Positions 9,481 to 63,415 of a stretch of 64,000 nt of DNA are shown piece after piece. The stretch lies in IMG/VR virus record IMGVR_UViG_3300017650_000009; one strand, written 5' to 3'. Origin of the DNA: a virus (lineage: Duplodnaviria; Heunggongvirae; Uroviricota; Caudoviricetes). The notes under the pieces are model-generated. The model was not told the origin of the DNA. It searched no databases and saw only the letters and a list, made by a program, of their open reading frames with translations. Both the position numbers and the translations under genes were made by a program. Position 1 is the first letter of the stretch, and each line of letters begins with the position of its first letter.

Positions 9481-9607
9481 TGCCTCTTCATTTTAATTTT
9501 GATTTTCCAAGTCTTGCCGTGTTATAAATAAAGCTGGGTGTTAAACCCAGCTTAGGCAGATAAGTCTCACGCGGTTGTGAGCAGCTAAGACCTGAAAGGA
9601 AAATCAA

Positions 9608-24620: not shown

Positions 24621-24750
24621 TTACGAGCCGATTTGTTTAGGTTATCTTTTTTGAACAAAGCGGGCCTGGGTTCAAATCCCAGCGTGAGAACTAGTTCTCA
24701 TGTGGTGTAGTGGTAGCATCGAAAACGTCTAAGCATGTACTTGCTCGTAG
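24621..24750 (+). ncRNA. YrlA/Y-RNA-like circularly permuted tRNA mimic
   Basis: Order is T-arm, capped acceptor stem, D-arm; ends pair with a bulged-C helix. Confidence 0.75.
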
Positions 24751-25230: not shown

Positions 25231-25308
25231 GCCCCTGTAGCCCAATTGGTGAGAGGTAGCAGGTCGAGAGCCTGAAGGTTGTCGGTTCGAATCCGACTAG
25301 GGGCACCA
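25231..25308 (+). tRNA. tRNA-Leu(GAG), short variable loop, C33
   Basis: Loop TCGAGAG, A73, CCA. Confidence 0.8.
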
Positions 25309-26147: not shown

Positions 26148-26225
26148 GCCCTTGTAGCCCAATTGGTGAGAGGTACTAGTTTTAGAAACTAGGGGTTGTC
26201 GGTTCGAATCCGACCAAGGGTACCA
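26148..26225 (+). tRNA. tRNA-Leu(TAG), short variable loop
   Basis: Loop TTTAGAA, CCA. Confidence 0.88.
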
Positions 26226-34904: not shown

Positions 34905-34981
34905 GCCCGTGTAGTCCAATTGGTAGAGGCGTCGGTTTCAAACTCCGAATGTTAGCGGTTCGAGTCCGCTCATGGGTACCA
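34905..34981 (+). tRNA. tRNA-Leu(CAA), short variable loop
   Basis: Loop TTCAAAC, A73, CCA. Confidence 0.82.
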
Positions 34982-45459: not shown

Positions 45460-45679
45460 TACTCTGTTAAACATGTTAACCGCATGTGGTTGAAATAGGA
45501 ATAGGTTGCTTTATATTAAAATTGTAAGCAACACAAAATACTATGGAGATCGAAAATGGTTAAGCTAATACAGGCAGCACTGGTAGTTGTTATGTTTTTG
45601 GGTCTGGGTTATCAGACTGTTATGGCACTTAACGATCAGGCTCTTGAACAGCAGGAAATGTATCGCTATAAGTGATACA

Positions 45680-45750
45680 GCTCTCGTAGTTAAAACCATA
45701 TAACGCCGCAATGATAAGGCGGAGTTCCCGCGCATTAGTGGGCGAGAGAA
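45680..45750 (+). pseudogene. degenerate tRNA-Ile(GAT)
   Basis: Cloverleaf with loop ATGATAA; no T-psi-C loop, no CCA. Confidence 0.5.
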
Positions 45751-45753
45751 TTT

Positions 45754-45832
45754 AGGGACCTAGCTTAAAATCAGGTGAAGCACTGCGGATCCATCCGCAG
45801 GTAGGTAGGTTCGAATCCTGCGGTCCCTGCCA
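45754..45832 (+). tRNA. Trp-like tRNA with aberrant 8-nt anticodon loop
   Basis: AGGGACC/GGTCCCT-G-CCA; loop GATCCATC. Confidence 0.6.
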
Positions 45833-45876
45833 AAATACATATTGACTTGCGACGGTTAGCCAAGTTAATGTGGTCA

Positions 45877-46103
45877 TGTAAGTGCAAAGAGGCGTTATTA
45901 CTTGGAACAAATAGATTCAAGTATTTAATATTATATAACGGTTCAAGCTGGTATAGTATGGTCTGCGTTAGAAAACATAGTAGTGGACACCACTTGAATT
46001 ACCTGGTTGCGATTAAAGACGATGAGTGTTGATAGGTAGGCTCGGCCGGGCTCCTATATATGTCGGTGTGGGAAGTGAGAGGAAACCCACCTTTGTGCTT
46101 ACA
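45877..46103 (+). ncRNA. unknown RNA family, copy 1
   Basis: 13-bp terminal stem; 3' motif GGTGTGGGAAGTGAGAGGAAACCCACC. Confidence 0.65.
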
Positions 46104-46107
46104 GAAT

Positions 46108-46184
<77 letters not shown>

Positions 46185-46200
46185 AACATGGATTCATATT

Positions 46201-46662
46201 ATGATCATTACTGATCCACATACCCTCATACAAATGAAACTAACCAATCCCGATGAGTTCAACTGGGCAGTGGAACCATGTGAGGAAGTGGAAGCTTTTG
46301 AAACCACTAGTGGTGTGAAACCAGATGATCCTTTTATTCGTATGAATTGCGAATTTATTGGGTTCCTTAAAGATTGCCAGGATGACCCAGATAATCGTAT
46401 TGATGGTCACTTGTTTCATGGTGATCAGGAGTTCTTCGCATTGCATCTGTTCTATCAACCTAATTGGCCAGTATGGTCATTGAATGAGTTGGAAACAGAT
46501 GAGCATGTCAGGAAAAATCCTTGGGTCGCATATGTTACTGCGGCAAAACGCACCGAGATTTATTTGTATCGGCGTTTTCCAACAAAACAAGAACTATTAG
46601 ATTATTATGCATTGTATCCGGGTATCACGTCGGATCATGGTATGTTCATGATTTATGCTTGA
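46201..46662 (+). CDS. hypothetical protein
   Basis: 153-aa ORF. Confidence 0.6.
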   Translation: MIITDPHTLIQMKLTNPDEFNWAVEPCEEVEAFETTSGVKPDDPFIRMNCEFIGFLKDCQDDPDNRIDGHLFHGDQEFFALHLFYQPNWPVWSLNELETDEHVRKNPWVAYVTAAKRTEIYLYRRFPTKQELLDYYALYPGITSDHGMFMIYA

Positions 46663-46697
46663 CATCCTAATCCATATTCTATATTAAATATGGTAAT

Positions 46698-46737
46698 GTC
46701 CACATAGGCCAATTGGTAGAGTCATTTGGATTTGAAC
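46698..46737 (+). pseudogene. 5' half of a split tRNA (Leu-type D-arm)
   Basis: GTCCACA-TA-GGCCAATTGGTAGAGTC-A-TTTGG. Confidence 0.75.
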
Positions 46738-47318
46738 GGAGCCATGCCTCTCCACCATCCCTGTGGTATTTCATCAGTATCACAAATATATTTTGTTATA
46801 ATTCCGTTGGTTATCTTAATTCTTCCTTTTTGTGACCTAGGTGATTTGACACCTAAGCGACCTTTTCGCCAGCCCATATGAATAAACTCATCAAGAAATT
46901 CCTTTTTAATTTTCTTGTTTAGAATTCCATTGTTAATCCACAAAGAACCAAATTGTGAATTTGTGGTATCAATTTTAGATACCACATTTAATAATTCACC
47001 AGCCCGACGATAATTACCACCTTTCGGAGTTAAACCGACTTTGATTAATGCTTGTCGAATATTAGCAGTTTCTGAAATGGCACGGGTCAATGCTTCATCG
47101 GAAACAACATTTTTTGATTTATTACGTCCTCTCCATGTGTCTGTTTGACTATGACAATTTGGGCATAAAAAACGCAAATTTGAAATATCATTATTTTTAT
47201 TATTTCCATCTATGTGGTCAATTTCCAAAGTTATTGGAGCATTACACCAGGATGAAATTTTACATTTTGAACAACAATAATTATTGACTTCGAGTAATTT
47301 GGTCTTTAAGTTGGGCAT
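46722..47318 (-). mobile_element. HNH homing endonuclease
   Basis: CSKC...LEIDHIDGNNKNNDISNLRFLCPNCHSQT; C-terminal NUMOD-like repeats (WINNG, ITNG). Confidence 0.92.
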
Positions 47319-47334
47319 ATAAATATCCTTATAT

Positions 47335-47413
47335 GGGCGCGTAGGCTAATTGGTATCGCCAGGAGACTTAAAATCTCTGTTGTCTGTGAGTTCGACTCTC
47401 ACCGCGCCTACCA
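47335..47413 (+). tRNA. tRNA-Leu(TAA)
   Basis: Loop CTTAAAA, CCA. Confidence 0.88.
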
Positions 47414-47433
47414 ATCTTTTGGTATTTATAATT

Positions 47434-47468
47434 AAAAAGTGTCGGTTCGAGTCCGACTGTGGACACCA
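47434..47468 (+). pseudogene. 3' half of the split tRNA
   Basis: GTCGG-TTCGAGT-CCGAC-TGTGGAC-A-CCA; acceptor strand complements 46698-46704. Confidence 0.8.
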
Positions 47469-47480
47469 AAGGAGTTATGT

Positions 47481-48095
47481 ATGCGTGAGATATTTTTTGA
47501 AGCACCTGCCAGTTATTTCGATGAACCAACTGAAGATCATATCGAATTAACCAAAGCGTTTAGAAATCATGTTCCAATATGGATCAGAATTGATGATCCA
47601 TTTTCGAATCGCAATGGTAGTATTGGTCTCGTTACCACAGGTTATCTCGGTGGCCTTGCTTTGAATTCTAAGTATCTCACGCAACGACTCTTCCGTTCCC
47701 AATCCAATCTTTATACAAAACCAAACAATCCAGTAAGTTTTGAATTGGCATCGAATAATTTCACATGGCTCCAAGATTATACTGGCACATACAAACATGT
47801 TTTCACAAAGAAGCCTCAGCAAGTTGAGGAATGTGGCACCGATATGTTTGGTACACCTTTGCGTGTTGGTTCATTTGTAGCCGCAAGTAATGGCAAAGGG
47901 ATGATTGTTGGTAATATCAAGCAATTTAGCATCCGACGTGAGCGATGCAGGAATATCCTAGCTGAGATAAATGTGGTGCCAATGGATTCACAACCCAACT
48001 CGGTTAAAGGAAACATACGGGTTAATCTGCGGAATCTAATGGTCATAACGGACACAATTAAGACTCAAGCACTTCTTGCAAAGTTGGAAGCATAA
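47481..48095 (+). CDS. paralog family A protein
   Basis: NRNGSIGLV...WLQDYTG...DMFGTPLRVG...AKLEA. Confidence 0.7.
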   Translation: MREIFFEAPASYFDEPTEDHIELTKAFRNHVPIWIRIDDPFSNRNGSIGLVTTGYLGGLALNSKYLTQRLFRSQSNLYTKPNNPVSFELASNNFTWLQDYTGTYKHVFTKKPQQVEECGTDMFGTPLRVGSFVAASNGKGMIVGNIKQFSIRRERCRNILAEINVVPMDSQPNSVKGNIRVNLRNLMVITDTIKTQALLAKLEA

Positions 48096-48733
48096 TGGTT
48101 ACAAAGTACGATCTAACTAATAGTCGGTATGCAGCGGCATCAATTAAAAATGCTATCAATGCAGAACTTGCTAATGCTGAATGTTGGTTTGAAATTACCG
48201 ATCCCACAAGTCGTTGGTTCGGGTCGATCGGTACAATTGATATGACTGCTATTCATAACCTTTCGACGCAACGTTTCGGCAATATGCCACGATTTCGTAA
48301 TACCATGTTGGATAATCTCATGGCATCATATGGTTGTTCGCCTAAATTGGATCTAGGTAAAAGCGTTATCAGTGCAAATAACCACTTATACACTATGTCA
48401 TTGCTAGTCGGATATAATGGTCCGAAAGTTTACAATTTTGCCAAACAAACCAAGCAATCAATTCCAGCTCAATATGATCTATTGGGAACTGAAATTACAC
48501 CCGGTGCATTCGTCAGTGCAAGCGGTGGGCAGGGAATTTATTTGGGGAAAGTTGTAGAAATATTTAGGGTCAAAGCATATCATGACCAAATTCGTGTTCG
48601 TCTTGATGTGATTGTTGACCCCATAGATGGTGGTTACGTTAGTGATAAACCAACAGTTAATATTCGGAATATCATGGTCATAACACCGGATATCAAGCAG
48701 CAAGCTATGATATCAAAGCTTACTAAGCCTTAA
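48095..48733 (+). CDS. paralog family A protein
   Basis: RWFGSIGTI...DLLGTEITPG...LGKVVEI...SKLTKP. Confidence 0.7.
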   Translation: MVTKYDLTNSRYAAASIKNAINAELANAECWFEITDPTSRWFGSIGTIDMTAIHNLSTQRFGNMPRFRNTMLDNLMASYGCSPKLDLGKSVISANNHLYTMSLLVGYNGPKVYNFAKQTKQSIPAQYDLLGTEITPGAFVSASGGQGIYLGKVVEIFRVKAYHDQIRVRLDVIVDPIDGGYVSDKPTVNIRNIMVITPDIKQQAMISKLTKP

Positions 48734-50723: not shown

Positions 50724-50799
50724 GCGCTTATAGCTCAGTTGGTAGAGCAGGGATCTCTAAAATCTTTTGTCGTCGGTTCGAGCCCGACTAAGCGCACCA
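50724..50799 (+). tRNA. amber suppressor tRNA (anticodon CTA)
   Basis: GGGAT-CTCTAAA-ATCTT; otherwise canonical 76-nt cloverleaf, A73, CCA; own promoter. Confidence 0.9.
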
Positions 50800-62567: not shown

Positions 62568-62963
62568 ATGGTCGAAGAAAAGATAATCCGTGCAAACCCG
62601 CAGGTTCTCATTGCGATGAAATTATCCGCAGTGGGTCTTGGTTGTGGTTTTATGGATATGAAACCAATTGATGACGAATTGCTTTTCGGTAAACCTGATA
62701 TAAATTTATCCGGTTCATGGGCATTCGGGGCAATTGGTATTGATTTCCCTGAAAACCATTTCACTTATGGGAACCAACAATATGGTTTGGTTTTCATAGA
62801 GAAAGTAAAAAGCTATTTCATTGGATTGGCGTCGATCATAGATCTTGAACGTGAATCGATGCGTTTTAGGAAATGCGCAAGCCTTGGTGAGGCAATGGCT
62901 CTAGCTAGGGATCCACGAACATATCATCATGTTACATCCAAGCTTAATCGGCTACATCCTTAA
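62568..62963 (+). CDS. hypothetical protein
   Basis: 131-aa ORF. Confidence 0.5.
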   Translation: MVEEKIIRANPQVLIAMKLSAVGLGCGFMDMKPIDDELLFGKPDINLSGSWAFGAIGIDFPENHFTYGNQQYGLVFIEKVKSYFIGLASIIDLERESMRFRKCASLGEAMALARDPRTYHHVTSKLNRLHP

Positions 62964-63415
62964 TTGCGCTTTTCTTTACGCCGGGCCTCATGAAAGCGAG
63001 CCATATCTTCGCGGGTCTTTTCCTTGTGGCAATCCGAACAAAGCAAGCGTAAGTTGTCAGCTTGCCAATAACTAGGATCACCGTTGGCCTCGAATAGTGG
63101 CTTTATATGATCTACGTCGAAATGACCGAAACGATCATGATACCCACAACTCACACAAGTATATTTGTCACGTTTATGGATTGCACGTCTAGCATAAGTC
63201 GGATTGTTCATCGTGTTCCAAATACTAACACATTTGGAATGCCAATGTTTACGGTTATTACGTTTTCCGTTCTCTATAATTTCTTCGCCACAATAACGAC
63301 ATTGTCCGCGAGGAACATTCCAGTGAATCGGTTTTGGTGGTTTGCGATGATTAGCCATAAACTTATTTACTTGACACGCGATTGCACCCAGTAATATGTT
63401 GAACAAAAGGAGCAT
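62960..63415 (-). CDS. HNH endonuclease
   Basis: RDKYTCVSCG...DVDHIKPL...NLRLLCSDCHKEKT; TAAATA upstream. Confidence 0.92.
   Translation of the reverse strand: MLLLFNILLGAIACQVNKFMANHRKPPKPIHWNVPRGQCRYCGEEIIENGKRNNRKHWHSKCVSIWNTMNNPTYARRAIHKRDKYTCVSCGYHDRFGHFDVDHIKPLFEANGDPSYWQADNLRLLCSDCHKEKTREDMARFHEARRKEKRN

Follow-up and report, generated by a model that had tools for sequence, protein, structure and literature searches.

Within a stretch of 64,000 nucleotides of phage DNA (the window), the gene for a resident tRNA-Leu(UAA) has lost its anticodon arm, and an insert containing an HNH endonuclease gene and a second, complete tRNA-Leu(UAA) gene stands in its place. We consider it likely that this insert is a two-gene mobile cassette, in which a free-standing HNH homing-endonuclease gene, arranged head-to-head with its own tRNA-Leu(UAA), became lodged in the resident tRNA-Leu(UAA) gene with replacement of the anticodon arm. 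The features of the locus are as follows:

46659–46687, + strand: putative sigma-70-like promoter of the resident tRNA gene (TTGACA, 17 nt, TATTAA), read from the sequence, 10 nt upstream of the 5′ remnant
46698–46724, + strand: 5′ remnant of the resident tRNA-Leu(UAA), tRNA positions 1–26, collinear with the intact allele up to 46724
46722–47318, − strand: HNH (His-Me finger) endonuclease gene, 198 aa (Pfam HNH and HNH_3, phrog_14736), antisense to the tRNAs
46725–47435: cassette of 711 nt replacing the 17-nt anticodon arm, exactly the stretch skipped by a contig of run X8
47318–47325, + strand: TATAAATA motif, T4 late promoter-like, 10 nt upstream of the cassette tRNA and overlapping the HNH start codon
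47335–47413, + strand: intact cassette tRNA-Leu(UAA) (ARAGORN; Rfam tRNA model 50.2 bits, E 4e-9)
47423–47430, − strand: TATAAATA motif, candidate promoter of the HNH mRNA, beyond the cassette tRNA on the HNH strand
47436–47468, + strand: 3′ remnant of the same resident gene; from 47436 on, its sequence is collinear with the intact allele

Remnants of a tRNA gene on both sides of the insert

The 5′ remnant is composed of the acceptor strand GTCCACA, U8 and A9 (TA), a D-arm (GGC/CAATTGGTAGA/GTC) with a three-pair stem and an 11-nt loop, and A26. The 3′ remnant is composed of a 5-nt variable loop (AAAGT), a T-arm (GTCGG/TTCGAGT/CCGAC), the acceptor strand TGTGGAC, A73 and an encoded CCA. As a preliminary description of this DNA had observed, the acceptor strands of the two remnants are perfectly complementary (7/7 pairs); the chance of such pairing at a fixed position is about 6e-5, with the canonical D- and T-arms not yet counted. 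The same description had compared the D-arm with those of short-arm Leu tRNAs, and its type is indeed that of the phage's other Leu tRNAs with short variable arms. ARAGORN, allowed introns of up to 3 kb, called no split tRNA, and brute-force joining of the halves over 980 junction pairs was set aside as uninformative, as the resulting cloverleafs could have nearly any anticodon.

An intact allele in a sister strain

Contigs from public runs were aligned to positions 46000–48200 of the window. A contig of run X8 (10,961 nt, depth 25) differs from the window at 9 positions over 46127–46724 and at 13 over 47436–48200, i.e., the flanks are about 98% identical; it lacks 46725–47435 and carries instead a 17-nt anticodon arm, CCGGACTTAAAATCCGG (CCGGA-CTTAAAA-TCCGG; positions 27–43). 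The intact allele is represented by this single contig of one run, the library type of which was guessed as 'probably DNA'. The window remnants joined to the 17-nt arm of X8 are recognized by ARAGORN as a canonical 77-nt tRNA-Leu(UAA). Thus, the uninterrupted allele that the preliminary description had proposed to look for in relatives is an intact 77-nt tRNA with the anticodon UAA, both halves derive from one gene, a tRNA-Leu(UAA), and the whole anticodon arm has been replaced by a cassette that supplies the same isoacceptor, as expected of the substitute that had been postulated. The preliminary description had also placed the insertion at the anticodon. The anticodon region was hit, but not by a simple cut in the loop, the entire arm (17 nt, 27–43) having been exchanged for 711 nt.

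Since no copy of the 17-mer arm is found in the window, the intact form must be a separate DNA allele; neither deletion nor splicing could produce it from the cassette form. Between these close relatives, the window and the X8 contig, the locus is polymorphic for presence and absence of the cassette. An exact-pattern scan of IMG/VR for uninterrupted tRNAs built on these acceptor strands returned 7 matches, none of which was a tRNA. IMG/VR contains no relatives of the flanking 204-aa protein, which, in a set of 5.8 billion proteins, matches only itself on six near-identical contigs, so that synteny around it gives no empty site.

Content of the cassette

The antisense HNH gene and a canonical tRNA-Leu(UAA) fill the insert entirely, and both elements that had been reported between the halves are recovered by independent tools (Pfam and phrog_14736 for the former, ARAGORN and Rfam for the latter). 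The GC content of the cassette is 35%, as compared to 40–41% in the flanks and 42.5% in the window, and UUA accounts for 8 of the 15 Leu codons in the HNH gene, as compared to 10% in 35 long ORFs of the phage. Because of its low GC content and the UUA-rich Leu codons of the HNH gene, the cassette looks foreign; the same richness in UUA means that the cassette brings the tRNA most needed by its own gene. The cassette tRNA-Leu(UAA) has a short variable region, A73 and an encoded CCA, and it shares the anticodon loop with the resident tRNA while differing from it in the stems.

The HNH ORF matches PF01844 at 22.5 bits (cutoff 21.4), PF13392 at 24.3 bits (just below the cutoff of 24.8) and phrog_14736 'HNH endonuclease' with an E-value of 1.1e-31. 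Residues C16, C19, H35, N47, C52, C55 and H56 are invariant across 43 homologues, the HNH protein of the window included. It thus has the catalytic His, Asn and His together with two CxxC pairs of zinc ligands, and with all metal-binding and catalytic residues present, the ORF represents a complete enzyme. It is a separate antisense gene outside any self-splicing intron or intein, with its own Shine-Dalgarno sequence (AAGGA, 8 nt ahead of the ATG), and its TGA stop at 46722–46724 falls in the resident remnant, at tRNA positions 24–26. The AlphaFold model (mean pLDDT 87.8) comprises an N-terminal HNH module, in which strands at 32–35 and 48–51 and a helix at 53–56 may form a ββα-metal fold, followed by a helical module and two β-hairpin repeats. 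A Foldseek search of the PDB with this model gave weak rows only (E at least 0.1), nearly all of them HNH proteins (Cap5, McrA, ZRANB3, I-HmuI and GVE2 HNH), and the sequence itself matched only spurious 'Pizza' designs in the PDB. A second antisense HNH ORF of a different subfamily (151 aa; PF01844 E 1.2e-9) is located at 62960–63415 (−).

The HNH gene is the sole ORF of at least 70 aa in the insert, and no integrase was found there. At the cassette ends there are no terminal inverted repeats, no boundary direct repeats and no target duplication. A duplication of TTTGG at both junctions was considered as a candidate target duplication but abandoned, given that the intact allele reads CCGGA/TCCGG and that the TATTTATAA word belongs to the conserved features of the cassette. 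At its borders the cassette has stem-like words (TTTGG... at the left end, ...TTAA at the right) unlike the resident arm CCGGA/TCCGG; they look like what co-conversion would leave behind of a split tRNA in the donor.

Recurrence of the HNH and tRNA-Leu pair in other phages

Approximately 65 proteins in a large protein collection match the HNH protein over its full length, at 48–64% identity. From these we examined the DNA of ten distinct full-length-HNH loci, namely the window and the loci L010, L013, L094, L096, L098, L100, L181, L183 and L184 (HNH identity 45–63%). In 10/10 loci a tRNA-Leu lies head-to-head with the HNH start, 10–35 nt away on the opposite strand, often between tRNA remnants, which is in keeping with the earlier suggestion of a mobile cassette. 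The anticodon of this partner tRNA is UAA in nine loci and CAA in one (L181), and the HNH gene runs against the flanking genes in those loci where they are called. The acceptor sequence of the cassette tRNA (GGGCGYG / CRYGCCT) is common to the cassette tRNAs of L010, L013, L094, L096 and L184. HNH identity rises with the identity of the partner tRNA (Spearman 0.63 over 45 pairs, which are not independent of one another), and the nearest HNH protein to that of the window (L010, 63%) is found beside the nearest tRNA (85%).

The 3′ remnant is kept in 9/10 loci and the 5′ remnant in 4/10, three of these four pairing with their 3′ remnant. L094 has both remnants, with acceptor strands that form six Watson-Crick pairs and one G-U pair, and the outer split tRNA of L013 (GCGCGCA ... 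TGCGCGC-A-CCA) likewise has pairing acceptor strands. In L010 there is a 5′ remnant only, very like that of the window, and in L100, L184, L096, L098, L181 and L183 the 3′ remnant alone is preserved, at some of these loci in degenerate form. Such loss and degeneration is the pattern expected of decaying pseudogene flanks, but pure neutral decay does not explain the excess of 3′ over 5′ remnants (9/10 vs 4/10); the 3′ remnant may be carried along by the cassette or have some use for it.

The HNH genes of L010, L013 and L094 end in a TAA stop that is reverse-complementary to U33-U34-A35 of the 5′ remnant, which locates the original insertion to the anticodon loop. The equivalent triplet of the window reads TTT, and the HNH ORF there extends for three more codons to the TGA within the remnant.

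Two of the loci have additional tRNA-Leu genes. In L013 (3822–4620; JGI 3300034072, 465-kb contig), the outer split tRNA encloses the HNH gene, the partner tRNA-Leu(UAA) and a second intact tRNA-Leu(UAA); this second gene, of the short-arm type, is the closest intact homologue of the window remnants in the loci examined. In L181 (1390–2275; ENA ERZ1645187, 145-kb contig), where the partner is tRNA-Leu(CAA), the usual stop of the HNH ORF has been lost, and the frame continues through the opposite strand of an almost whole tRNA-Leu(UAA)-like gene, itself bearing a 10-nt insertion ahead of the D-arm; an orphan 3′ remnant (CACTCGC-A-CCA) follows the partner tRNA. The whole or nearly whole Leu(UAA) genes next to the cassette in L013 and L181 show that some genes of this type are neither cut nor split, and target specificity must involve more than the anticodon loop.

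Scans of IMG/VR and metagenomes with the HNH alignment returned, among the matches listed, mostly relatives of the N-terminal domain and one full-length locus. In the T4-like Yersinia phage phiD1 (NC_027353.1; L009, 2441–3142), the gene of a homologue 42% identical to the HNH protein shares its strand with the tRNA cluster and stops 6 nt short of the first gene of that cluster, tRNA-Leu(UAA), where T4 presumably has tRNA-Gln.

Candidate promoters

The motif TATAAATA, the T4 late-promoter consensus, is found 8 times in the window against 3.3 expected, an enrichment of approximately 2.4-fold, and a count of 8 was reached in 1 of 100 shuffles. The sites are at 9523, 23095, 23929, 32325, 47318, 54125 and 57768 (+) and at 47423 (−); all but the last thus lie on the + strand, which bears the genes, and several are just upstream of ORFs. 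The two words in the cassette point outward from the HNH/tRNA junction region. In L094, L100 and L184, CATATAAATATC also precedes the cassette tRNA, and a TATTTATA-like word comes after the CCA of the cassette tRNA in most related loci. Judged from these sequence features, both motifs may support expression, and the one at 47423–47430, if active, would give the HNH message a leader antisense to the cassette tRNA.

The putative sigma-70-like promoter ahead of the 5′ remnant (46659–46687) was omitted by a scanner for consensus promoters, its –10 hexamer ending in A. A layout of the same TTGACA type also precedes other isolated tRNAs in the window, e.g., at 50724, and the promoter is presumably active; it would then read antisense through the HNH gene and into the cassette tRNA. 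The tRNA at 50724–50799, which has a TTGACA-17-TATAAC promoter-like site upstream, has the anticodon CUA, that of an amber suppressor (ARAGORN lists it as Pyl); the ORFs of the window are open in the standard code. In the metatranscriptome run X13, small contigs were found at 46234–46600 and 46836–47006 only, and these hold neither strand information nor a junction.

A model for the spread of the cassette, and alternatives to it

In the model that we favor, the cassette tRNA would take over the decoding of UUA and UUG, so that the destructive insertion would cost the phage little. When a cassette-free relative infects the same cell, the HNH enzyme would cleave its intact tRNA-Leu(UAA) allele, within the anticodon arm or close by. 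The cassette-bearing genome would then be the template for repair of the break, its D-arm/acceptor and T-arm/acceptor remnants serving as homology arms. Repair would copy the cassette in, as in intron homing, and because the spare gene would travel along, splicing would be unneeded. The cassette tRNA, with the same anticodon loop and different stems, would presumably remain uncut. We infer the cleavage site, the specificity of the enzyme and the immunity of the cassette tRNA from this arrangement, and the target of the HNH enzyme may lie elsewhere, e.g., in the T-arm as for SegB.

A broader proposal is that the HNH gene and its tRNA-Leu make up a class of homing element in its own right, 'self-complementing' and spread widely among giant and T4-like phages, which destroys the anticodon arm of a tRNA gene and renders the damage neutral by means of a cleavage-immune isoacceptor gene, the two genes being expressed back-to-back from late-type promoters with the leader of the nuclease mRNA antisense to the tRNA. 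We judge the chances of this proposal to be evenly balanced.

It is possible, although we think it improbable, that the cassette came by ordinary illegitimate or homologous recombination in the tRNA array; the HNH gene would then be a passenger, or would target some other site (the T-arm, a neighboring tRNA or a different gene), and its link with tRNA-Leu would reflect co-inheritance of neighbors. Consistent with such an origin, the junctions are untidy, with 17 nt lost and the 5′ remnants often deleted, and members of the wider family, related through the N-terminal HNH domain only, adjoin many different tRNAs: among the matches listed, tRNAs are found within 1.5 kb in 126 of 144 distinct loci, and the nearest neighbors are diverse, with some excess of Leu. 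SegB, moreover, recognizes the T-arm and not the anticodon (PMC2330249). However, all ten loci of the full-length subfamily share the head-to-head tRNA-Leu, and a Leu-type 5′ remnant abuts the HNH stop in four independent loci, in three of which the break is in the anticodon loop. This recurrent partner, together with the position of the 5′ remnant at the HNH stop, would be hard to obtain without a site preference.

The remnants could alternatively be a working split or intron-containing tRNA, the halves of which are joined, or anneal via the acceptor stem, into a functional tRNA or a tRNA-like RNA. The perfect acceptor pairing, the intact D- and T-arms, the encoded CCA and the promoter-like site that has been kept would all suit a functional molecule, as would the acceptor strands of differing sequence that pair in three loci. 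However, an Rfam scan of 45500–48500 (E cut-off 1) found no group I or group II intron, only the tRNA family reaching its gathering score, and Intron_gpI gave no match in the insert at E-values up to 1. The anticodon arm of the intact allele is missing from the window, so that joined halves would be without a proper anticodon arm; one remnant is missing or degenerate at other loci; and bacteria are not known to have an enzyme system that joins such tRNA halves. We therefore regard a functional split tRNA as very improbable, in agreement with the preliminary description, which had ranked splicing as the less likely alternative. The two 'halves' are, in our reading, probably the dead shell of the resident gene.

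That the assembler misplaced the cassette inside a tRNA gene is scarcely credible: repeats abound in tRNA arrays and the window was assembled from metagenomes, but an independent ENA contig has the identical sequence, both junctions are covered by contigs of other runs, at 46700–47245 (from the 5′ remnant into the HNH gene, across the left junction) and at 47127–47543 (across the right junction), and the same architecture is found in unrelated assemblies, so that the arrangement is real. The evidence taken together favors the two-gene mobile cassette.

Comparison with known systems

Free-standing endonuclease genes in phage tRNA clusters (SegB; T5 F-Tfl) and tRNA genes split by group I introns that bear endonuclease genes are already known. 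The preliminary description had likened the insert to tRNA-targeting integrative elements. In such islands and prophages a tyrosine integrase is at work, and the 3′ part of the tRNA is duplicated as attL and attR. The likeness extends to insertion in a tRNA gene with tRNA function remaining available, but fails at the level of mechanism: the window has neither the integrase nor the att-like repeats. Intron-less homing, as by T4 SegB, is the closer analogue.

Group I introns with homing endonucleases are found in tRNA anticodon loops, e.g., in the tRNA-Leu(UAA) of cyanobacteria and plastids. There, as in the window, a tRNA is interrupted in the anticodon region by a homing-endonuclease element, and the halves resemble exons as homology arms. 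In contrast, the window has no ribozyme, the anticodon arm is deleted, the endonuclease gene is antisense, and function would be restored by a second gene and not by splicing.

SegB is a free-standing GIY-YIG homing endonuclease in the tRNA cluster of T4, which cuts tRNA genes and co-converts neighboring tRNA genes (PMC2330249; also PMC13096335). The window cassette resembles it in that a free-standing endonuclease gene lies inside a phage tRNA array and is present or absent among close relatives; SegB cuts the tRNA genes of relatives without SegB and spreads with neighboring tRNA genes by gene conversion, and the HNH enzyme of the window would cut in a comparable way. The two differ in the enzyme family (GIY-YIG vs HNH) and in location, as SegB sits between tRNA genes and splits none, whereas the window cassette splits one. 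SegB recognizes the T-arm and 3′ end of its targets, and a fixed partner tRNA that matches the specificity of the destroyed target is not described for it.

The F-Tfl enzymes of T5 are similar in being HNH-family enzymes encoded within a phage tRNA cluster. Some records label T4-like homologues of the window HNH protein as F-TflIV, a label that is an annotation on N-terminal matches of 51% identity only, and the proteins so labeled lack the C-terminal half of the window HNH protein. No arrangement of a split tRNA with a spare tRNA was found for T5 in the literature examined.

In 'fractured genes', free-standing homing endonuclease genes lie between the halves of split-intein genes (PMC2677866). 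The shared features are a host gene broken in two by a free-standing endonuclease gene and a built-in device that compensates; the compensation there is protein trans-splicing of the two halves, whereas in the window a second, complete gene would stand in for halves no longer used.

The literature covered, which is incomplete and therefore weak evidence of novelty, contains no free-standing HNH gene permanently paired with a spare tRNA inside the tRNA gene that it replaced.

Setting in the phage and significance

The phage genome is very large, roughly 435 kb, with window proteins found on contigs of up to 434,884 bp, and no close relatives of the region were found among deposited phage GenBank genomes. 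The window has 42 tRNA genes called by ARAGORN, almost all on the + strand. Its Leu tRNAs (25231–25308, 26148–26225, 34905–34981 and 47335–47413, together with the rebuilt resident gene) have the anticodons GAG, UAG, CAA and UAA, and all are 77–79 nt long with a variable region of 5–7 nt. A bacterial tRNA-Leu usually has a long variable arm, and such an arm is kept by the cassette tRNAs of L094, L096 and L013. Orphan T-arm-like hairpins (5-bp stem, TTCRANY loop) are found on the + strand, outside the tRNAs called by ARAGORN, at 24666, 26242 (directly after tRNA-Leu(UAG)), 39201, 42243, 42293, 49402, 49540 and 49673, and these may be further tRNA remnants or tRNA-like RNAs.

Homing endonuclease genes usually spare the host, in that they reside inside self-splicing introns or inteins, or between genes. 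The locus described here would represent a third solution, in which the target gene is broken outright and a working spare is brought along. Such a solution would help to explain the tRNA fragments and duplicate isoacceptors that litter large phage tRNA arrays, and it offers a concrete pair of enzyme and target, the HNH protein and a 77-bp tRNA-Leu(UAA) gene. The remnants can also mislead tRNA annotation, as well as claims that phages have split or permuted tRNAs. Endonucleases in tRNA clusters remodel the tRNA repertoires of phages, which matter for escape from tRNA-cleaving host defenses, and the locus adds to the evidence for this remodeling (PMC13096335). If the proposal of self-complementing elements is true, these would drive the turnover of phage tRNA arrays, and they could be weapons between co-infecting phages, by which the tRNA of a rival is knocked out.
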